A stretch of DNA of 64,000 bases from Dehalococcoidia bacterium. GTDB taxonomy: Bacteria > Chloroflexota > Dehalococcoidia > Lucifugimonadales > UBA3495. The notes beneath the pieces were generated by a model. The model saw nothing but the letters and a program-made list of their open reading frames with translations. It did no database searches and had not been told where the DNA came from. This document shows, piece by piece, positions 30,539 to 49,915 of the stretch (its first letter is position 1; every line of letters begins with the position of its first letter). The translations under genes were made by a program, and so were the position numbers. The DNA is taken from positions 65,593-129,592 of the forward strand of contig DAOULH010000025.1 in NCBI GenBank assembly GCA_034420475.1. Direction: 5' to 3'.

Positions 30539-31081
30539 CTACCGATCCACCAGGCACGCGATCACCTGCGGAGCCGCCGTGGCCGCCCGCTCGGAGAGTT
30601 CGGCGTCGGTCAGGGTGACGATGGGGTGCTCGATGATTGCCAGCCCGTACTCCGGGTCGCCGCGCATTCGGGACATGGCGTGGGCTTGACTCACGAAGGG
30701 CCGGGTGGTCAGCACGGTGGACGGGATGCCCAGCAGTTCGGTTTCCATTGCGTCGTGCACACTGCACGCGGTGCAGGACCCTCATTCCGCCGTGGCGTGT
30801 ATTGCCACGTCAATGCTCTTGGCGGTGCGTTGCAGGTCCTCGATTCGGGCCGGCCACTGCCATCCGCCCTTGTTGTGTTCCACGGTGCCGGCGATGTCGT
30901 ACCGCTCGCCGATGATGGCGGCGATGCGACGCAGCAGGTCCTCGGAGTGCGGCTTGTTGTTGGCGAACAGCCCGATGACCTTGCCGTCCAGGGTCGCCGG
31001 ACGCTGCGCCAACCGCGACGGGGCCGGCGGCGAGTCGTCGCGCGGGTCCAGCGTGACGATGGGAGTGGATTGTGTTGTCAT
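30539..31081 (-). CDS. UGSC-motif selenoprotein candidate (in-frame TGA at 30782-30784 read as Sec)
   Basis: ORF-track pieces 30782..31081 and 30539..30760 are in one frame: ...DVAIHATAE-TGA-GSCTACSVHDAMETELLGIPSTVLTTRPF... A paralog at 45186..45725 has TGA at the same column. Confidence 0.75.
30754..30768 (-). promoter_or_regulatory. candidate SECIS-like hairpin
   Basis: mRNA CGUGCA-GUG-UGCACG begins 13 nt 3' of the UGA; an alternative CUGCAC-CGC-GUGCAG pairing overlaps it. Confidence 0.35.
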
Positions 31082-31137: not shown

Positions 31138-32139
31138 TCAGTTGGGTACGGCAACTTGCCGAATGACCGAGCGGCTGGAGCCCCAGGTGGCGATGAGACT
31201 GACGAAAGCGCCGGCCATGCCGCCGCCGGGCAGCACGGTGATCCGGTCGGCTTCGGGAACTACCGGAACCAGTCGGTCGTGATCGAGTTCGTGGCCCATC
31301 CGCTTCCAGCGCATCCACTCGGACACGGGTAGCCGCGCCTTGTCGTGCAGGAAGTCGGCCACCTGCTGGCGCGACCAGCCGGCCGCCGCCACGTGCTGCA
31401 TGGTCTCCGGGCTGATGACGCAGATCACTTCCGGCATACCCGGGCCGAAGGCCAGCATGGCGTGGGCCACGGTGGTCAGGAACTCGGCCGGGTCGCGGCC
31501 GCTGTGCAGGGTCACCTGCAATGGCGCCAGGGTGGCAAAGGCTCTCACGATGGTAGCGTCGTCGCCGTAGCCCAGTTCCGAAGCCAGCGATGGCCACGGG
31601 CTGATGGCCAGGTTCTCGGGGAAGCTGAAGGTGATCTTGCCGGCGTGGCCGAAGGTGCTGTTGTCCATCACCACCGGAACCGATCCGTAGAAGTTGGACT
31701 TGAACAGGTTTACCGCCCGACCGATGGCGGCGTTGGCGCGACTGCCGTTGCCCATCATCTCCACGCCGGCGTTCATGCCGATGGTCTCGGCGTAGGGGCC
31801 ACTGACCACCGTGAGCACCGTTGCGCCGTTGGTGGACGTGCTGCTGGCGTGGAGGTTGAAACTCCGCTCGGTGATCGCCGACAGCGCCGCCATGACCACC
31901 GGAAAATGCTCCGGCAGGCAACCGGCCATCACCGCGTTCACCGCCGCCTTGCCGGCCGTGAACCGCTTCTGCCGGATGATCTCCGTGCCCAGGTCGTGGT
32001 CGGCGTCCACGCCGGCGTAGTCCAGCATGGCCTGCACGCGGTCGGGAGTGGGCGGAACAATCGGCAGCCCATCGGTGAGGCCGTTGGCGAAGTAGTAATC
32101 CTGGGCGTCGTTCCAGTCGGCGAAGCTGAGGGTGGTCAT
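31138..32139 (-). CDS. conserved protein of unknown function linked to the UGSC gene (paralog of 43315..44397)
   Basis: 333 aa; shares TDGLPIVPPT and AVNAVMAGCLPEHFPVV blocks with the second copy; ends 56 nt upstream of the UGSC gene. Confidence 0.75.
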   Translation of the reverse strand: MTTLSFADWNDAQDYYFANGLTDGLPIVPPTPDRVQAMLDYAGVDADHDLGTEIIRQKRFTAGKAAVNAVMAGCLPEHFPVVMAALSAITERSFNLHASSTSTNGATVLTVVSGPYAETIGMNAGVEMMGNGSRANAAIGRAVNLFKSNFYGSVPVVMDNSTFGHAGKITFSFPENLAISPWPSLASELGYGDDATIVRAFATLAPLQVTLHSGRDPAEFLTTVAHAMLAFGPGMPEVICVISPETMQHVAAAGWSRQQVADFLHDKARLPVSEWMRWKRMGHELDHDRLVPVVPEADRITVLPGGGMAGAFVSLIATWGSSRSVIRQVAVPN

Positions 32140-38709: not shown

Positions 38710-41700
38710 CTATCCGGCCTTCGCCGGGTACTCCGTGCAGCTTTCGTCCTGGAGCAGCAGGTCCTGGACGCGCTGCTGGAGTTCGTCGCAGACCGCCGTT
38801 GACACGGTGGGGATCTCCATCAGGACCTTGCGCCCTTCCTTGAGGTTGAGCTCCAGGTAAACCTTGTCCTCGCCCGTGTACTCCAGCATGACCCGGATGG
38901 CCTGCCGCAGCCGGTACCGGTCCTCGTCCGGCTGGTCGGTCTCCATCATCCGGATCAGGACTCCAGCTTCCCGGTGTCCGTTGGTCGGAGCGGGCGCCTC
39001 CGGGGAAGGAGTTGGCCGGTTCCCGTTGGACCGAGCCGGCTTGGGCGGAGCGCTTGTACCCGCCGGCGCCGGCTTGCCGGCGGGTTTGGGCTCAGGCTCA
39101 GCCGCGGGCGCCATCGGAGCGTTCTCCGGAAGCTGGAACTCCTGCGCGTCGTAGCAGGCGATGGAGAAGTCGTCCCCGCGGATCTGGAGCCGTCCCGTGA
39201 CCCGGGCCACTCGACCCGTCTGCCAGACATGAGCGGTCTTTTCCAGCGAGTCGGGCCAGACCATAGCCTCAACCTGCCCGCCCACCATGGCCAGGTCAAC
39301 ACGCAGGAACTTTCGGTTGTCGCGCGTGTACCGTTCGGTGACGCCGGCGATATGCCCCAGCAGCGTTACCGTGCTGCTGATCATCTCCTCGTCCAACTGG
39401 TCCACCGAGTTGTAGGCGTCGCCCGGGCTGATGGCAGCCAGGGCCAGCAGCGGGTTGTAGGACAGCGCAACCCCGAGGTACTCCTTTTCCAGGTTGGCTT
39501 TTTCCTGCGGGGTGTAATCGGCGTGGGACGTGTCCAGTTCCAGCAATGTGCCGCCGGCGCCGCTGTCCATCTCTTCTCCGAACATGCCGACCTGCCCGGA
39601 GTTGCGGTTTCGCGTTTCCTGCTGCGCCAGCGCCCAGATGCGGTCCAGGTTGCCCATCACGGTGGCCCGCGGCACCAGGGAGTCGAAGGCCCCGGCCTTG
39701 GCCAGCCCCTCCAGGGTGCGGCGGTTCAGACCCGACACGTCCACCCGCCGGCAGAAGTCGGTGATTGAAGCATAGGGGCCCTTGGCAACGCGCTCGGTCA
39801 CAATGGGCGTGATGGCCGCCTCGCCGACGGTCTTGATCGCGGCCAGGCCGATGCGGAGCTTGCCGCTTTGCGCCCGGTCCGTTGGCGTGTCGATGGTGTA
39901 ATGGATGCCGGAGCGGTTCACGTCGGGCAACTCGATCCCGATGCCCATGCGCGTGCACTCGTTGATCGACGCGACGTAGCGGTCGCCGTGATCCAGGCGG
40001 CAGTTGAGCACCGAGGCCATGTACTCCAGCGGGTAATGGGTCTTGAAGTAGGCGGTCCAGTAGGAGATCAACCCGTAGCTCACGCTGTGGGCCTTGTTGA
40101 AGGCGTACCCGGCGAAGGGCTCGATCAGGTTGAAGATCTCCGCGCCCATCTGCTCGGAGTAGCCTTTCTGCACCGCGCCGGACACGAATCGTTCTCGCTC
40201 CTCGGCCATCAACTCCGGTATCTTTTTCCCCATGGCCTTGCGGACGGTGTCGGCTTCGCCCAGGGAATAGCCGGCGAAGTTCTGCAGCACGTGCAGCACC
40301 TGGTCCTGGTACACGATGACGCCGTAGGTCTCATCCAGCAGTTCCTTCATGCTGGGATGGGGGTAGGTGACCTGCTCCCGGCCGTGCTTGGAACGGATGA
40401 AACGGTCGATGTGCTCCATTGGGCCGGGGCGGTAGAGGGCGATCATCGCGGCGATGTCGCCCAGGTCGGAGGGTTTCAGTTCCTTGATGTACCGCTGCAT
40501 CCCGGCGCTTTCCAGCTGGAACAGGTCGGTGGTGTTGCCGGTGCCCAGCAGATCGTAGGTGGCTTCGTCGTCCAGCGTGAGCCGGCTCAGGTCGATGCGG
40601 ATGCCCCGTTCCTCGTCCAGCAACTTGATGGTCCGGTCCAGGATGGTGAGGTTGGTGAGGCCCAGGAAGTCCATCTTGAGCAGGCCCAGCTTGGCCACCG
40701 GGTCCATGGAGTACTGGGTCATCATCACCGGGCTGCTCTCGTCACCGCGGGAGGGACGTTGCAGCGGGACGGTTTCGGTCAGCGGCTCGTCGGCGATCAG
40801 CACGCCCGCGGCGTGGGTGCTGACGTGGTGGACGATGCCCTCCAGGGCCTGGGCGTTGTCCACCAGTTCCCGGATCGCGGCGTCACGCACGTAGGTGTCC
40901 GCCATTTCCTGGTTGGCCGTCATGGCGTCCGAGATCGTGCGGGACTTGAAGGGGACCATCCGGGCGATGCGGTCGACGTCGCCGTAGCTCATGCCCAGAC
41001 CCCGGCCCACGTCACGCAGGGCGGCCTTGGGCCCCAGGGTTCCGAAGGTGATGATCTGGGCCACCCGGTCACTGCCGTAGCGGTCGATGACGTAGCGCAG
41101 CACCTCGTCCCGCCGGTCGTCCTGGAAGTCCATGTCGATGTCGGGCATTTCCTTGCGCTCGAAATTCAGGAAACGCTCGAACACCAGGTTGTACCGCATG
41201 GGGTCGATGTCGGTGATCCCCAGGCAGTACAGCACCACGCTGGCGGCGGCGCTCCCCCGCACGCCGAAGAGGATCTGCTGCTTGCGGACGAAGGAGATGA
41301 TGTCCCACACCACCAGGAAGTAGTTGGCGAAGCTGGTCTGACGCACTACCTCCAGCTCGTACTCCATGCGGGCGCGGGCGTCGTCGTTGTTGATCCCGTA
41401 CCGCAGGTTGAAACCCTCCCAGCAGATGCGTTCCAGGTAGGCGTCGGCATCCTCGTTGTTCGGCGTCGGATACCGGGGCAGGTGCATCTGCCCGAATCCC
41501 AGCGAAACGTTGCATTGCTGGGCCACCTCGCCGGTGATGTCCACGGCCTGCGGGAAATCGTGGAACAGCGCGGCCATCTCGTCGGCGGACCGGATGTAGT
41601 AGGAAGAGTCCTCCATCCGCAAGCGGTTGCCGTCCATCACGTTGGTGCCCGTCTGGATGCAGATGTACACGTCCTGGTACTGGTAATCGGACTGGCGAAC

Positions 41701-42318
41701 GTAGTGGGCGTCGTTAGTGACCAATAGTGGCACGCCGGTCTCCCGGTTCAATCGCGCCAGCCCGTCGTTGATCCGGGGCAACTGCTCGATGTGCTCGTGC
41801 CGCTGCAACTCCAGGAAATAATTCTCGCCGAAGAGTTCGCGATACCAGCCGACCATTTGCTTCGCATCCTGGAAATTGCCGTCGGCCAGCAGGGTGGGCA
41901 CCTCGGCGGAAGGGCACCCGGAGAGGCAGATCAGACCCTGCCGGTGCCGCTCGATCAGTTCCTTGTCAATGCGCGGGCGGTAGTGGAAGCCCTCCAGGTG
42001 GGAGAGGGTCACCAGTTGCAGCAGGTTGCGGTAGCCGGCGTTGTCCTTGGCGATGAGCACCAGGTGGTTGGCGGTGCGCTCGTTGGGAGTGCGGTCGTGG
42101 CGGCTGCCGTGGGCAACGTAGAACTCGCACCCGATGATGGGCTTGATGCCGGCGTCCTTGCACTCGGAGTAGAAATCGACCACGCCGTAAAGCGAACCGT
42201 GGTCGGTGATGCTCATGGCGTCCATGCCCAGCTCGCGGGTCCGGTTCACCAGGTCCGGGATGCGGCTGATGCCATCAAGCATGCTGTATTCGGTGTGAGT
42301 ATGCAGGTGAGTGAACAC
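38710..42318 (-). CDS. dnaE: DNA polymerase III subunit alpha
   Basis: MFTHLHTHTEYSMLDG PHP domain start; 1202 aa; collinear polymerase core, HhH, OB and C-terminal domain. Confidence 0.95.
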   Translation of the reverse strand: MFTHLHTHTEYSMLDGISRIPDLVNRTRELGMDAMSITDHGSLYGVVDFYSECKDAGIKPIIGCEFYVAHGSRHDRTPNERTANHLVLIAKDNAGYRNLLQLVTLSHLEGFHYRPRIDKELIERHRQGLICLSGCPSAEVPTLLADGNFQDAKQMVGWYRELFGENYFLELQRHEHIEQLPRINDGLARLNRETGVPLLVTNDAHYVRQSDYQYQDVYICIQTGTNVMDGNRLRMEDSSYYIRSADEMAALFHDFPQAVDITGEVAQQCNVSLGFGQMHLPRYPTPNNEDADAYLERICWEGFNLRYGINNDDARARMEYELEVVRQTSFANYFLVVWDIISFVRKQQILFGVRGSAAASVVLYCLGITDIDPMRYNLVFERFLNFERKEMPDIDMDFQDDRRDEVLRYVIDRYGSDRVAQIITFGTLGPKAALRDVGRGLGMSYGDVDRIARMVPFKSRTISDAMTANQEMADTYVRDAAIRELVDNAQALEGIVHHVSTHAAGVLIADEPLTETVPLQRPSRGDESSPVMMTQYSMDPVAKLGLLKMDFLGLTNLTILDRTIKLLDEERGIRIDLSRLTLDDEATYDLLGTGNTTDLFQLESAGMQRYIKELKPSDLGDIAAMIALYRPGPMEHIDRFIRSKHGREQVTYPHPSMKELLDETYGVIVYQDQVLHVLQNFAGYSLGEADTVRKAMGKKIPELMAEERERFVSGAVQKGYSEQMGAEIFNLIEPFAGYAFNKAHSVSYGLISYWTAYFKTHYPLEYMASVLNCRLDHGDRYVASINECTRMGIGIELPDVNRSGIHYTIDTPTDRAQSGKLRIGLAAIKTVGEAAITPIVTERVAKGPYASITDFCRRVDVSGLNRRTLEGLAKAGAFDSLVPRATVMGNLDRIWALAQQETRNRNSGQVGMFGEEMDSGAGGTLLELDTSHADYTPQEKANLEKEYLGVALSYNPLLALAAISPGDAYNSVDQLDEEMISSTVTLLGHIAGVTERYTRDNRKFLRVDLAMVGGQVEAMVWPDSLEKTAHVWQTGRVARVTGRLQIRGDDFSIACYDAQEFQLPENAPMAPAAEPEPKPAGKPAPAGTSAPPKPARSNGNRPTPSPEAPAPTNGHREAGVLIRMMETDQPDEDRYRLRQAIRVMLEYTGEDKVYLELNLKEGRKVLMEIPTVSTAVCDELQQRVQDLLLQDESCTEYPAKAG

Positions 42319-42508: not shown

Positions 42509-42949
42509 CTACCCCGGAGTTTGACGGGCGAGGTCGGCAACGCGGGCTACGGTGGAGAGGGGTGGAATGACGCCGGGCGGGGTTGGCGTGTTGGCAACCC
42601 GGAGCAGCTCTGCTATCGGGATGCGGAGGTGTCGGTGCAGGGCCTCGGCCATCGCCAGCGTCATCTCCTGTTCGCCGGCCAGCAACTCTTCAATGTTGCC
42701 CTGGTCGCCCAGCAGTTGATTGATAGCCTGCACCGTCCAGCCCTTTTCCTCAACCCAGAACCTGATGAGCGCCCGGCCTTCGGGCACAGGCATCGGTATG
42801 TTGCGGTATTCGTAGAGCAGAACCAGATCGACCAGGAGGTCAAGCTCCTCATCCTCCGGGGTATCAGGTTCGGCATCCATCAGAATTTCAATGCGAGCCA
42901 GAGCCGCTTCATATTCCTCTTCGGTCCGGACTGGCTTGATATTACACAT
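42509..42949 (-). CDS. higA: HigA-family antitoxin (HTH)
   Basis: IKPVRTEEEYEAALARIEILMDAEPDTPEDEELDLLVDLVLLYE plus C-terminal HTH; 3 nt downstream of higB. Confidence 0.8.
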   Translation of the reverse strand: MCNIKPVRTEEEYEAALARIEILMDAEPDTPEDEELDLLVDLVLLYEYRNIPMPVPEGRALIRFWVEEKGWTVQAINQLLGDQGNIEELLAGEQEMTLAMAEALHRHLRIPIAELLRVANTPTPPGVIPPLSTVARVADLARQTPG

Positions 42950-42952
42950 TCC

Positions 42953-43246
42953 TCAAACCTCCGCGGCATTGATACGGTCGTACTCGGCGTGGGTGCCGAT
43001 AAAGCGGATGTAAACTGCTCGCCGCCTGTAGTTGATGTTGACCACCAGCCGATAGTCGTTGCCTTTGATGTTGAACACCACCCGGTTACCAGCAATGATA
43101 CTGGCGCTGGCAAATTGAGCCCTCACTGCTGCTGGCGTGTCCCAGTTTGCATCGTCCGCATCCTGATACCAACTGCGCAAGGGCCGTTCTGCATCAGCAT
43201 GGCGTTCCCAAAACTCCCGCAGTGTCCTCTTGGAGAAGACCCTCAT
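42953..43246 (-). CDS. higB: HigB-family toxin
   Basis: MRVFSKRTLREFWERHADAERPLRSWY...VFNIKGNDYRLVVNINYRRRAVYIRFIGTHAEYDRI. Confidence 0.85.
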   Translation of the reverse strand: MRVFSKRTLREFWERHADAERPLRSWYQDADDANWDTPAAVRAQFASASIIAGNRVVFNIKGNDYRLVVNINYRRRAVYIRFIGTHAEYDRINAAEV

Positions 43247-43314: not shown

Positions 43315-44397
43315 TCACCCCGGAATCTCTATCTTCTCCGTCACCACCCGGGTCACTCCCCAGCCGGCCAGCCAAGCCGAATGGCGACCGTCGCCCCCGG
43401 CCACGACCACTACGATGTCGTCAGCGTCCAGCGCGATGGGCACCATGGTGTTCGGGTCCTCGTCGTTCACCCAGTCCGGGTAGTTGCGGTTGCCCCAGTG
43501 TCCCAGGCCCGACAGGTCGGCGATGGACATGCGCGCGTTGGCGAACACGTACTCGCGAACGTCCTGCTTGGTGAACCCGTCCGCCGCGATTTCGGCCGCG
43601 TGCTCCGGGCTCAGCACCAGCGTCACCTGCGCGCCGGTCCCGATCTGGTAGAAATTGGAGAAGCCGGTGGCCCGGGTCGCCTGCACCAGCGTGTTGAGCA
43701 CGTCCGTGCCCCGCGAAACCGTGGTTTCCATGACCGGATAGAAGGCCCGGATCGCGTGGAGGGTCACCATGCTGTCTTGCGGATCCAGCCCCAGTTCCAC
43801 ATGCCTCGGCTCCCAGGGACTGTGCGCCTCGTTCTCGGCGAAGCAGAAGGAATACCTGCCCGGCATGGCCAGGGTCGCCTTGTCCATGTCGCCGATGATG
43901 AGGCCGGCCACGTTGCGCACGAACAGGCGCAGGGCCCGGCCGATGGTCGCGTTGGCGCGGTAGCCGGGTCCGAACGCCCCGGAATCGCCGTTGATGCCCA
44001 GCCGCTCCGCGATGGGGCCGTTCACGATCACCACCGGGGCCGCGCCTCCGGTGGTGGCCTGGCAACCGGCCAGGTTGAACGGCGTTTGCAGGGCCGCTTT
44101 CACGCAGGCCACCACCACCGGAAAATACTCGGGACGGCACCCGGCCATCACGGCGTTGATGGCGACTTTCTCAATATTGACTTCCGAATTGGAGGGTTGC
44201 GCCATGCCCAGGGACAGCGAAGGATCTTCGCCCCACGGGCCCAGCATCCGTTGCACGGCGTCCACCGTGGCCGGAACCACGGGCATTCCGTCGGTCCACC
44301 CCTGCTCTTCGTAGTAGTCCTGGATGGCGTCGTAGGTGTCAGGCACGTCGATGCGGCGCGAGTTCAAGGCTCGACTGTTGGTTGTCATAAGGCTCAC
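43315..44397 (-). CDS. conserved protein of unknown function linked to the UGSC gene (paralog of 31138..32139)
   Basis: 360 aa; TDGMPVVPAT and AINAVMAGCRPEYFPVV blocks shared with the first copy; collinear over the whole length. Confidence 0.75.
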   Translation of the reverse strand: MSLMTTNSRALNSRRIDVPDTYDAIQDYYEEQGWTDGMPVVPATVDAVQRMLGPWGEDPSLSLGMAQPSNSEVNIEKVAINAVMAGCRPEYFPVVVACVKAALQTPFNLAGCQATTGGAAPVVIVNGPIAERLGINGDSGAFGPGYRANATIGRALRLFVRNVAGLIIGDMDKATLAMPGRYSFCFAENEAHSPWEPRHVELGLDPQDSMVTLHAIRAFYPVMETTVSRGTDVLNTLVQATRATGFSNFYQIGTGAQVTLVLSPEHAAEIAADGFTKQDVREYVFANARMSIADLSGLGHWGNRNYPDWVNDEDPNTMVPIALDADDIVVVVAGGDGRHSAWLAGWGVTRVVTEKIEIPG

Positions 44398-44419
44398 TCT
44401 TCTCAGGTGGTTTCTTTGG

Positions 44420-45157
44420 TCAGGCGCCGGTGGACAGATCGGCTACGACGCCGAAGTGGTCGGACAGGCGTCGCTCGCCGTCCATGTTGTCAATCGTCGC
44501 CAGGGACACGGCAGACAGTTCTCCGCTGATGGCGATGTGGTCAATGGCGCGTCGCCCCTGCAATCCAAGTCCGGCAGTCACGATGGTCAAGCCCGGGGGT
44601 CGTGCTGCCGCCATGGTCTCCTGCAATCTGGCGCGCACCGGATGGGACAGCGGAGGGTAAGGTCTCGGCCGTTGTCCAATTTGCTGGTTGAAATCGCCAA
44701 GGACGATCAATCGTCCGTTCGATTTGTTGCTCAATATCGACGCCAAACCGTCCAAGTAAGTTTCATGCTCCTGCCACGGGGCTTTGTCCTTACGGCCAAC
44801 GTTCACATTCGCATTGTGGTACGGGATGCAGACCCCTATTACCCCGAGCTGACCAACCGATGTTTCGGTGGTTCCGGCAACGAACCTTCCGGCAGGCAGA
44901 TCCTTGTCGCCGACGGCATCGACGTCGCGCCATTCGTGCTTAGACCAGAGCAGTACTTTGCGCCTATTCAGGTTGGCGCCAGGCCCGTCGGCGGGCTTGC
45001 AACAGATCGTGTGCCCTTTCAATTCGTCCAGCAAGTGTGCGTGCGCTTCGGTCAGACAGATCACCTCCGCGTCATGGCTCTCGATGCGGGACAAAATTTC
45101 TGGGCTACGCGCCGCGCCGGGCGTAGCCCATTCAACATTCCAGTTGACCACTTTCAT
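44420..45157 (-). CDS. endonuclease/exonuclease/phosphatase (EEP) family protein
   Basis: MKVVNWNVEW..., VICLTEAH, LGDFNQ, C-terminal SDHFGVVADL. It looks AT-richer than both neighbours. Confidence 0.8.
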   Translation of the reverse strand: MKVVNWNVEWATPGAARSPEILSRIESHDAEVICLTEAHAHLLDELKGHTICCKPADGPGANLNRRKVLLWSKHEWRDVDAVGDKDLPAGRFVAGTTETSVGQLGVIGVCIPYHNANVNVGRKDKAPWQEHETYLDGLASILSNKSNGRLIVLGDFNQQIGQRPRPYPPLSHPVRARLQETMAAARPPGLTIVTAGLGLQGRRAIDHIAISGELSAVSLATIDNMDGERRLSDHFGVVADLSTGA

Positions 45158-45185
45158 GACGAAAGCGGCACCCTGACCGGGGCGA

Positions 45186-45725
45186 CTAATCGCCGTTGGT
45201 CAGCATCTCGGCGATCCGGCCGGCAAAGTCGTGGGCCAGCTGCTGCACTTCCGGTATCGACCGGGAGGCCAGCGGGCTGGGCAGAGCCAGGATCTGGACG
45301 CCGGGCATTCCCAGCGAGGAGGCGCGGGCGTGCGCCGCCCGGGTGAAACTCTCGGTGATGACGCTCACGGAGGGAACGCCGCGGGTTTCGGTAACTACTG
45401 TGTCGTGGAGACCCCACGCCGTGCAGCTCCCTCAATCCGCGATTCCGTGCACCACCGCGTCGCATTGCTCGATCAACTCGTCGATGGTCTCGTCAGAGCA
45501 GGGGGCGCTGAAGCTGAACTTCCGCAGGTAAACCACCTTCTCGACGGCGTATTCCTCCTCCAGGATTACCTGGAGTTCCTGCAAGAAGTTGTCGGAGTGG
45601 TACTTGCGGTTTTCCAGCAGGCCGATGGTCTTGCCCGCGAGGCCGGGCAGCCGGTCGGTCGCCGCCCGCTCCTCGGTCTTCTGCTCCGGACGCGGGTCCA
45701 GGATCTGGATGGTTGCGGTCGTCAT
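45186..45725 (-). CDS. UGSC-motif selenoprotein candidate (in-frame TGA at 45432-45434 read as Sec)
   Basis: ORF-track pieces 45432..45725 and 45186..45368 are in one frame: ...DAVVHGIAD-TGA-GSCTAWGLHDTVVTETRGVPSVSVITESF... Confidence 0.75.
45404..45418 (-). promoter_or_regulatory. candidate SECIS-like hairpin
   Basis: mRNA CGUGG-GGUCU-CCACG begins 13 nt 3' of the UGA, the same spacing as at the other locus. Confidence 0.4.
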
Positions 45726-45779
45726 GGTTCCTCCGTTTGTTCTTCAACCGTCATTCCCGTTTTCACGGGAATCCAGCGT

Positions 45780-46916
45780 TTATCCCATCATCTGGTAGTG
45801 CTTGCCCTCGGTCTTGATGGCCGGGGCGATGACCATTTCGGTCTTGTGGAAGTCGCGCACCGTGTACGCGCCGCACATGCCCATCGCCACACGCAAGGCG
45901 CCGACGAGGTTCTGCGTCCCGTTGGTAACACTGGACGGCCCGTGCATCAGCTGCTTCAGGCTGCCCTTGGTGCCGACGTTGATGCGCGTCCCCCGGGGCA
46001 GTTCCGGGTGGGCGTTGGCCATGCCCCAGTTGTAGCCGCGGCCCGGGGCCTCGGCCGCTTGAGCGAAAGGCGTGCCCAGCATTACGCCGTCGGCGCCGCT
46101 GGCCATGGCCTTGCACACGTCGCCGCCGGTGCGCAGGCCGCCGTCGGTGATCACGCTGACGTACCGGCCGGTGCGCTGGAAATAGTCCTCGCGGGCCGCC
46201 GCGCACTCCAGGGTCGCGGTAACCTGGGGAACCCCCACGCCGGTAACTTCCCGCGTGGTGCAGGCCGCGCCGGGGCCGACCCCGATCAGTATGGCGTCGA
46301 TCCCGGTTTCCATCAGTTCGCTGGCGACGGCGTAGCTGACGCAGTTGCCCACCACCACGGGGACGTTGAGCGATTCGATCAGCTCGGAAAAGATGAGGCC
46401 CCGGTAACTGCGGGACATGTGCCGCGCCGTGGTCACGGTGGACTGCACGACGATGATGTCGGCGCCGGCCTCCACCGCCAGCGGGCTGAACCGCTTGGTG
46501 GTCTGGGGAGTGAACGCGATGGCCGCTATCGACCCGGACTGCTTGATCTCCTGGACGCGCTCGCCGATCAGATGGTCCTGCACCGGCTGGCTGTAAACCT
46601 CTTGCAGGTACTCGGTGACCTCGCCCTGGTCCATGGAGATGATCTCTTCCAGCACGGAGTACGGGTCTGCGTAGCGGGTGTAGAGGCCCTCGCCGTTCAG
46701 CACGCCGAGCCCGCCCATCTCGTGCATCAGTGTCGCAAAGCGCGGCGACACCGAACCGTCCATCGCCGAGGCCATCACGGGGGATTCAAAGGAGTATTGG
46801 CCGATGCTCATCTGGGTGGATGTCATTTCCGGGTTGATCGTGACCTCGCCCGGGACGATTGCAACCTCGTCAAACCCGTAGGATCGTTCCAGTTCTTTGA
46901 GCAAACGCCTGGCCAT
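45780..46916 (-). CDS. GuaB3-family IMP dehydrogenase-related protein
   Basis: [18 protein letters not shown]..., no CBS insert, 378 aa, [23 protein letters not shown]. Confidence 0.85.
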
Positions 46917-47052
46917 AGTTTCACCTCAAAGTTTGCCGTGAAGAGCGCTGAAATATAGTGAGAGAGACCTGCCGCGGTCAAATGCGGTTGGGTTGCATTG
47001 ACGGGGCGGTGATGTCATCCGCCCCGGTCTTGACCTGCTGAATTGTAGCATT

Positions 47053-49796: not shown

Positions 49797-49915
49797 TTTC
49801 CGGCGGTGACCTATTTTCCCACTCCGTCACCAGAGCAGTATCGTCGGCGCTGGGGCGTTTCACTTCCGTGTTCGGGATGGGTACGGGTGGTGCCACCCCG
49901 CTTGAACCACCAGAA
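49797..49915 (-). rRNA. rrf: 5S ribosomal RNA (stand-alone)
   Basis: Minus strand reads CTGGTGGTTCAAGCGGGGTGGCACCACCCGTACCCATCCCGAACACGGAAGTGAAACGCCCCAGCGCCGACGATACTGCTCTGGTGACGGAGTGGGAAAATAGGTCACCGCCGG. This gives a helix I pairing CTGGTGG/CCGCCGG and the universal CCGAAC...GAAGT loop. Confidence 0.9.

Follow-up and report, generated by a model that had tools for sequence, protein, structure and literature searches.

The window analysed here comprises 64,000 nt of a contig from a Dehalococcoidia bacterium (DAOULH010000025.1). The genes in question are UGSC-2, which encodes a protein of the UGSC family with an in-frame UGA codon, and partner-2, which lies downstream on the same strand and belongs to a large unnamed protein family. 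The best explanation is that a Dehalococcoidia lineage (SAR202-type, often sponge-associated) has passed on a guaB3-UGSC-partner-dnaE locus by vertical descent. In this locus UGSC-2 would be a true selenoprotein and would form a two-subunit redox enzyme with the partner, and two further elements, a gene of the endonuclease/exonuclease/phosphatase (EEP) family and a HigBA pair, would be passengers. For this reading as a whole we estimate a probability of about 60%.

The recoded UGA codon of UGSC-2

UGSC-2 occupies positions 45186-45725 of the minus strand and consists of 179 codons, with selenocysteine (Sec) at codon 98. The single in-frame UGA (45432-45434, context HGIAD-U-GSCTAWGLHD) supplies the U of the U-G-S-C motif. 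A preliminary description of the window, made from the letters alone, had proposed a second UGSC selenoprotein locus at this site, and its coordinates, reading frames, gene order and TGA position proved correct. Scored with U written as C, UGSC-2 reaches 130.6 bits with the curated model NF041046 ("UGSC family (seleno)protein"; cut-off 125, profile positions 2-147 of 147) and 171.5 bits with PF24696 (cut-off 25, E 2e-50), and each of the two matches covers both halves of the protein. In its fit to the curated models, its U-G-S-C motif and its in-frame UGA codon, UGSC-2 agrees with the UGSC family as known from the work of Zhang & Gladyshev (PMC2398784, PMC1976440).

For comparison two sets of loci were used: 73 related loci from Dehalococcoidia/SAR202-type metagenome-assembled genomes, many of them sponge-associated, and 80 diverse metagenome contigs which were chosen by the partner alone (37-71% identity). 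Sense codons unrelated to Cys or Sec were looked for at the Sec position in the relatives, and TGA was found to be retained in all 75 UGSC genes of the 73 related loci; it is also present in nearly all of the 80 metagenome loci. Otherwise TGA acts as a stop codon here, as for example at the end of the EEP gene. The region 3' of the TGA evolves as coding sequence, with conserved amino acids and free synonymous variation.

A hairpin resembling a selenocysteine insertion sequence (SECIS), CGUGG-GGUCU-CCACG, is located at 45404-45418 of the minus strand, and its stem begins 16 nt after the U of the UGA. The codons +5 to +10 which lie over this hairpin (45419-45402; GCG TGG GGT CTC CAC GAC) show not one synonymous change in 72 of 72 distinct orthologs. 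The codons around them vary freely, and at the other four-fold degenerate codons of the UGSC gene the codon entropy is 1-1.9 bits. A six-frame motif scan of the window yielded exactly one other UGSC gene, UGSC-1 (30539-31081, minus strand; TGA 30784-30782). This gene and two paralogs from locus L072 carry a hairpin of other sequence in the same register, which in UGSC-1 reads CGUGCA-GUG-UGCACG (30768-30754). In the comparison of these paralogs 97.5% of the cells were paired, three of the five pairs showed compensatory changes, and no slid register came close. None of the SECIS families of Rfam reached its gathering score anywhere in the window, and when the 60 nt that follow each UGA were folded as single sequences, the result was no better than for shuffled ones (z-scores 0.5-0.9), so that the case for the hairpin rests on the comparative data.

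One might take the TGA for a genuine stop codon or a mutation that disrupts the gene, and put the neighbourhood of the two families down to coincidence, in keeping with public gene callers, which end the gene at 97-99 aa, and with the missing Rfam match. We consider this very improbable, as it is already contradicted by the evidence: the TGA is kept in 75 of 75 genes, the downstream frame is conserved under purifying selection, the hairpin is conserved, the match to the curated UGSC model extends over the two halves, and adjacency to or fusion with the partner is found in about 90-100% of cases. Together, the curated models, the invariant TGA, the coding-like C-terminal half and the conserved hairpin show UGSC-2, by the comparative sequence evidence, to be a real selenoprotein whose UGA would be recoded via the hairpin 16 nt downstream.

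When full-length UGSC-2 was used for a homolog search, almost only N-terminal fragments ending at the UGA were returned. In the public gene calls (P0271-P0390; P0123, P0125, P0127 etc.) the proteins appear as fragments of 97-99 aa which stop at the UGA, and fused forms appear as proteins starting just after it. Sec-type UGSC proteins are almost invisible in protein databases through systematic mis-calling, and a systematic misannotation of UGSC genes is thereby exposed.

Pairing of UGSC with the partner family

Partner-2 is encoded by an open reading frame (ORF) of 360 codons at 43315-44397 of the minus strand, the likely start being the ATG at 44388, which gives a protein of 357 aa as in the database homologs. 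A search with partner-2 returned more than 7900 close relatives, all unnamed, and the family comprises 4976 representatives at 50% clustering, whose sources are soils and sediments, lakes and oceans, and sponge symbionts. No match to partner-2 was obtained with Pfam, NCBIfam or PADLOC. At locus 1, partner-1 (31138-32139, minus strand, 333 aa) stands upstream and UGSC-1 just downstream of it. That the two partners are paralogs was noted before, with identities estimated by eye at a third to 40% for both protein pairs; the computed values are 36% for the partners (E 2e-59) and 30% for the UGSC proteins, close to that estimate.

Synteny of the two families was checked in the related genomes, and in all 73 loci the partner was found downstream of UGSC on the same strand. 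Of the 86 partner genes on the 80 diverse contigs, 77 are fused to a UGSC gene or have one next to them on the same strand, and the remaining ones lie mostly at contig ends or were accompanied by one detected UGSC half. The order is UGSC-then-partner in 32 cases and partner-then-UGSC in 27; 16 are fused, and only two are of the Cys type. Spacers between the two genes mostly measure 10-190 nt. Given the 73 of 73 related genomes and the approximately 90% of 86 diverse partner genes, the adjacency of UGSC and partner is far beyond chance.

Natural fusions of UGSC and partner exist in both orders, and about one third of the top 150 partner representatives are fused to UGSC. Three forms were encountered: full-length Cys-type UGSC-partner proteins (P0145, P0152), calls which start just after the UGA and comprise the C-terminal UGSC half followed by the partner (P0125, P0127), and partner-UGSC proteins which terminate at the UGA (P0126, P0139, P0197). 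Moreover, the distance matrices of UGSC and partner are correlated (r=0.75, Mantel 0/999). The functional coupling suggested in the preliminary description is thus backed by adjacency, by fusions in both orders and by the correlated matrices, and UGSC and partner probably form one two-subunit enzyme.

The two pairs of the window are no nearer to each other than to unrelated members of the family. Their duplication, or acquisition, is therefore ancient, in agreement with the old duplication proposed earlier. A rearrangement of locus 2 relative to locus 1 had also been proposed, and here the comparison led to another view: both layouts are common across the family and ancestral (UGSC-then-partner in 32 separate and 16 fused cases, partner-then-UGSC in 27), and so the difference in order between the two loci is not a local rearrangement. 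Two UGSC-partner pairs with opposite internal orders also occur within 6 kb of each other at L072:6007-11710 and L073:6007-11913; a UGSC-partner pair is followed by a partner-UGSC pair, both with TGA and with differing hairpin sequences. At another locus (L125:10897-12921) a selB gene (TIGR00475, 436 bits) is situated less than 2 kb from a UGSC-partner pair.

Redox architectures and the proposed mechanism

The domain architectures of other partner homologs are the most informative clue to the function of the pair, and they suggest a dithiol/selenol relay. In some homologs an AhpC/TSA redoxin takes the UGSC position, with C-A-T-C (P0269) or C-P-T-S (P0254) as motif. In P0207 the partner is fused to a thioredoxin reductase (TrxR)-like flavoprotein with C-A-V-C, in P0188 to the catalytic beta domain of ferredoxin:thioredoxin reductase (FTR), and in P0189 the latter domain occurs together with UGSC and partner. 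A TrxR-like gene is also found directly upstream of the pair at L079:6413-7393 (TIGR01292, 319 bits, just below the cut-off), and three other loci have members of this TrxR-like ORF cluster near the pair.

The structure of UGSC was modelled on the Cys-type UGSC domain of the fusion protein P0169 (motif ADCGSCTAWSVHD), with the UGSC halves of the window placed in the alignment. The AlphaFold model (pLDDT, the predicted local distance difference test, 91.4) is a flavodoxin-like alpha/beta structure with the motif on a strand-helix loop. Among its top 50 matches in the Protein Data Bank (PDB) there are many flavodoxin-like proteins (flavodoxin, WrbA, azoreductase, SsuE, PTS IIB) with query-normalised template modelling (TM) scores of approximately 0.35-0.55, and not one protein of the thioredoxin fold. 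The model thus shows the UGSC domain to be flavodoxin-like and not thioredoxin-like, which contradicts the description of the UGSC fold in the literature as "likely Trx-like" (PMC2398784).

Conserved elements of the partner are an N-terminal TDGLPxVPPT motif, Cys87 at a helix N-terminus, Gly153-Arg154, Cys185 and Glu188. Across 80 Sec-type pairs, C87 is kept in 78 partners, R154 in 79, E188 in 80 and C185 in 69; the respective numbers for UGSC are 80 for U, 80 for G, 76 for S and 77 for C. Partner-1 has retained Cys87, Arg154 and Glu188 and carries Ser at the position of C185, and the two paralogous systems of the window may differ in mechanism. Some proteins (P0124 with 717 aa, P0178, P0205, P0150) contain two tandem partner domains. 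Such partner-partner fusions suggest that a dimer or pseudo-dimer may be the working form of the partner.

Based on the redoxin, TrxR-like and FTR architectures of the homologs, we propose the following scheme. The partner would be the catalytic subunit, using Cys87 together with Arg154 and Glu188 and usually Cys185. UGSC would serve as its dedicated selenol/thiol redox subunit, which resolves or reduces the partner cysteine and in doing so cycles through a U-x-x-C selenenylsulfide, and a TrxR-type or FTR-type donor would re-reduce UGSC. Both the direction of the relay and its chemistry are drawn by analogy. Glycine and D-proline reductase, which use a small selenoprotein GrdA with CxxU, GrdB or PrdB with UxxC and the thioredoxin system as donor, provided the basis: like the pair proposed here, they combine a small Sec/Cys-motif protein with a larger substrate-specific subunit and a TrxR-type donor. 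However, neither UGSC-2 nor partner-2 matched GRDA or GRDB models in Pfam and NCBIfam (E<=0.01), no genes for a pyruvoyl-type proprotein or for protein C were found near UGSC-partner pairs, and the host here belongs to aerobic or marine Chloroflexota and is not a Stickland fermenter.

A second group with similar features are the thioredoxin-dependent thiol reductases with a resolving cysteine, namely methionine sulfoxide reductase (Msr), the arsenate reductase ArsC and peroxiredoxin (Prx). They too have a nucleophilic Cys at a helix N-terminus as well as an Arg/Glu pair, and a CxxC/UxxC protein regenerates them, whereas the fold is unrelated and matches to hidden Markov models (HMMs) are lacking, so that the resemblance is mechanistic only. 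Taken further, the scheme would describe a widespread two-component or fused selenoenzyme with a catalytic subunit of novel fold, which catalyses an undescribed reduction dependent on the thioredoxin system, possibly of a carboxylate-bearing organic compound. We put this forward tentatively, at slightly less than even odds.

The main competing explanation is a two-subunit metallo- or Fe-S enzyme without redox function, for instance a hydro-lyase, in which Sec, the Cys of UGSC and Cys87 ligate a cluster or metal and the substrate binds at the open site. The AlphaFold model of the partner (pLDDT 94.7) has its best PDB match in 7xky_A (E 1.5e-4), which is the alpha subunit of a class I fumarate hydratase that M. 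jannaschii builds from two subunits, followed by Toblerone-fold hydrolases and PrpD. Large-plus-small subunit organisation and fused variants in both orders are likewise reminiscent of the Fe-S fumarate hydratases of class I and of hydro-lyases related to them (7xky, 6uqn), three conserved Cys/Sec residues (U and C of UGSC, C87) would suit a three-ligand cluster, and the invariant Arg and Glu would suit carboxylate substrates. The match to 7xky_A is weak, though, with TM-scores of 0.31-0.37 at about 10% identity. No Pfam or other family HMM for Fe-S hydro-lyases matches the partner, a TM-score above 0.5 was not reached, and instead of three cluster cysteines the partner itself has two conserved ones only (C87, C185). 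Its fusions are to thiol-redox modules: a CxxC redoxin in place of UGSC and the TrxR-like and FTR fusions point to dithiol exchange, and it would be uncommon for Sec to ligate a cluster. We therefore regard a hydro-lyase as unlikely and prefer the two-subunit redox enzyme.

Several observations nevertheless weigh against the redox enzyme as we describe it. The best structural matches of the partner, weak as they are, are Fe-S or carboxylate-handling hydro-lyases and not thiol reductases, and PDB sequence searches with single proteins and with profiles returned nothing for partner or UGSC (nor for the EEP protein). C185 is missing in 11 of 80 partners and replaced by Ser in partner-1, so there is no universal C87-C185 disulfide. 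The UGSC fold was modelled on the Cys-type homolog P0169 rather than on the window protein. In the 64-kb window no genes for tRNA-Sec or Sec insertion were detected. Finally, clustering of the neighbouring genes of the 80 diverse loci yielded no conserved third gene which would reveal a substrate. Only scattered neighbours occur there, such as TctC binding proteins, thiamine pyrophosphate (TPP) enzymes, Amidohydro_2 proteins and TrxR; as these are varied catabolic or transport genes and none is conserved, no substrate was deduced. Sequence searches and model comparison together suggest that the fold of the partner is without relatives among solved structures and catalogued families.

UGSC-containing selenoproteins have been known since 2005-2008 from analyses of the Sargasso Sea and Global Ocean Sampling (GOS) data (PMC2398784, PMC1976440). 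The GOS data contained 255 Sec-type UGSC sequences, UGSC was the top family in several non-marine samples, and in metagenomes of oceans and fresh waters its members belong to the most abundant selenoproteins (PMC2398784). A UGSC gene is also reported for a cultured species, Hyphomonas neptunium (ABI76733.1; PMC1976440). It is still without a function in the literature (PMC2398784, PMC1976440, PMC9312934, PMC13188914), and reviews up to 2026 list it among the selenoproteins that are largely uncharacterised in function (PMC13188914). A fusion of UGSC to a conserved domain "Unknown_1" was reported in 2008 (PMC2398784), which means that the family and one fusion were already known and the idea of a pairing is not wholly new. 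"Unknown_1" is very likely the partner family.

A near-obligate pairing with one defined family of about 355 aa in both gene orders is described in none of the papers found on UGSC, and this two-gene or fused architecture is new here. Further new elements are the definition of the partner family with its candidate active-site residues, the flavodoxin-like fold predicted for UGSC, the redoxin, TrxR-like and FTR architectures, and the insertion history of the EEP gene and the HigBA pair. Given its near-constant partner, the redox modules (redoxin, TrxR-like, FTR) that can take its place or be added to it, and its flavodoxin-like fold, the orphan selenoprotein can now be put to the test as part of a two-subunit redox enzyme for which candidate residues of the active site are named.

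The EEP gene, the HigBA pair and the flanking genes

The spacer between UGSC-2 and partner-2 is occupied by the EEP gene (44420-45157, minus strand; PF03372 with 47.3 bits against a cut-off of 24.5). The motifs NWN, CLTE, GDxNQ, IDH and SDH are conserved at at least 95% in 39 copies. With the exodeoxyribonuclease III model TIGR00633 the protein scored 15.7 bits (cut-off 99), no signal peptide was found in the EEP copies, and PADLOC returned nothing for EEP, which leaves a reading as a defence system without support; UGSC likewise gave no PADLOC match. The deviating composition noticed in the preliminary description was borne out: the EEP gene has a G+C content of 56-59% versus 63-69% for its neighbours in the window, and 59.5% versus 63-65% across the relatives.

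The EEP gene also evolves differently from its surroundings. With a threshold of 85% identity, 27 clusters result from the 39 full-length copies, whose mutual identities are mostly 40-77%; UGSC, partner and guaB3 of the EEP-bearing genomes are 77-99% identical to those of the window. Median rates of nonsynonymous substitution (dN, Nei-Gojobori) are 0.45 for EEP versus 0.06 and 0.04 for the flanking genes, and the ratios to synonymous substitution (dN/dS) are 0.23 versus 0.05 and 0.03. The evolution of EEP is thus faster than that of its flanks by a factor of about 8-12, and with a dN/dS of about 0.23 there is no overall support for positive selection. For some genome pairs the dS of EEP exceeds that of the flanking genes two- to threefold, a hint of allele exchange. 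We interpret EEP as a functional, weakly constrained and fast-evolving cytoplasmic enzyme and not as a pseudogene.

An insertion of the EEP gene had been assumed, and its presence in relatives was checked accordingly. In exactly this slot it was found in about 45 of approximately 57 genomes of the closer clade; five more have spacers of about 410-500 nt, two of them with weak EEP similarity. An EEP-free arrangement guaB3-UGSC-partner-dnaE with a spacer of 35-170 nt is present in L002-L004 (85% partner identity) and in the deeper orthologs L005/L006, L062, L066-L068, L074 and L077, and EEP is absent from all 80 diverse UGSC-partner loci. As relatives with short spacers lack it, EEP is indeed an insertion relative to the ancestral arrangement. 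It is not a recent or private one, since about 45 genomes share the slot, with copies that are 40-77% identical. Homologs of 51-54% identity still occupy the UGSC-partner slot, and a 47%-identical homolog outside of it (L156:2545-4717) lies beside, and in divergent orientation to, the gene of a 407-aa protein with helix-turn-helix (HTH) and Peptidase_M78 domains. Full-length proteins of the PD-Lambda-2_B type have these same domains. The UGSC-partner spacer of deeper lineages is occupied by other genes: an AIM24-family gene (PF01987) in L058-L065 (L058:6598-7362), AIM24 together with a 173-aa ORF of no assigned family and a PIN-domain toxin in L065:6601-8882, and an insert of about 5 kb in L060:6525-11687. 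The spacer between UGSC and partner therefore reads as a recurrent, insertion-tolerant site.

It is conceivable that EEP is a functional third component, acting as a phosphatase or nuclease on the same substrate or in the same pathway within a UGSC-EEP-partner operon. The genes lie on the same strand with spacers of 28 nt and about 22-31 nt, no terminator-like site interrupts the minus strand between guaB3 and dnaE, about 45 genomes retain the gene with intact catalytic motifs, and 51-54%-identical homologs remain in the slot. Nonetheless we rate this as quite improbable: EEP is absent from the deeper orthologs and from all diverse pairs, was lost or degraded in several close relatives, is replaced in the slot by AIM24 or PIN genes in other lineages, has one homolog in an unrelated context, and shows a dN/dS four to seven times that of its flanks beside its lower G+C content. 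EEP is better explained as a lineage-specific passenger which would stand outside the UGSC-partner system.

Downstream of partner-2, and before dnaE, lies a gene for a HigB-type toxin (42953-43246, minus strand; PF09907, E 2e-32), followed at once by a small antitoxin-like gene of 146 aa (42509-42949, minus strand), which starts 3 nt after the HigB stop. A HigB toxin domain with a small antitoxin gene immediately behind it is the layout of a HigBA module. The insertion of such a module at this site, as described earlier, agrees with its absence from the ancestral arrangement and with the fact that some close relatives have it and others do not. L010 (OZ242004.1), the nearest relative, has kept the antitoxin and lacks HigB. 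Orphan antitoxins of this kind were found at L010:8436-8861, L022:8393-8830 and L071:8420-8857, compared with both genes at 42509-43246 of the window.

HigB matches PD-Lambda-2_A of PADLOC at full length (E 8e-40), and the antitoxin matches positions 1-122 only of the 402 in the PD-Lambda-2_B profile; against Pfam and NCBIfam the antitoxin gave no match at E<=0.01. A full-length B gene beside the A gene, as expected of a PD-Lambda-2 system, is not present at this locus. By these profile matches the pair resembles a cut-down PD-Lambda-2 candidate defence system. The best explanation for it is a variable passenger inserted downstream of partner-2.

The upstream flank of the locus is guaB3, encoding an IMP-dehydrogenase-related protein (45780-46916, minus strand; TIGR01304, 434.8 bits), and the downstream flank is dnaE for the alpha subunit of DNA polymerase III (38710-42318, minus strand; identified by Pfam domains on the relatives' copies). 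guaB3 is syntenic in nearly all orthologous loci, L074 and L077 included, and dnaE in most of them. No terminator-like site was found on the minus strand from guaB3 to dnaE, and promoter-like sites lie upstream of guaB3, which is weak evidence for a possible co-transcription of the region. Long ORFs on the plus strand of this region (e.g., 45231-46958) were treated as antisense artefacts of the high G+C content; every minus-strand gene is backed by a family model or by homologs. With no 16S or 23S rRNA gene in the 64-kb window, the 5S rRNA gene at 49798-49914, which stands alone between clpC and tRNA-Lys, is unlinked from other rRNA genes here.

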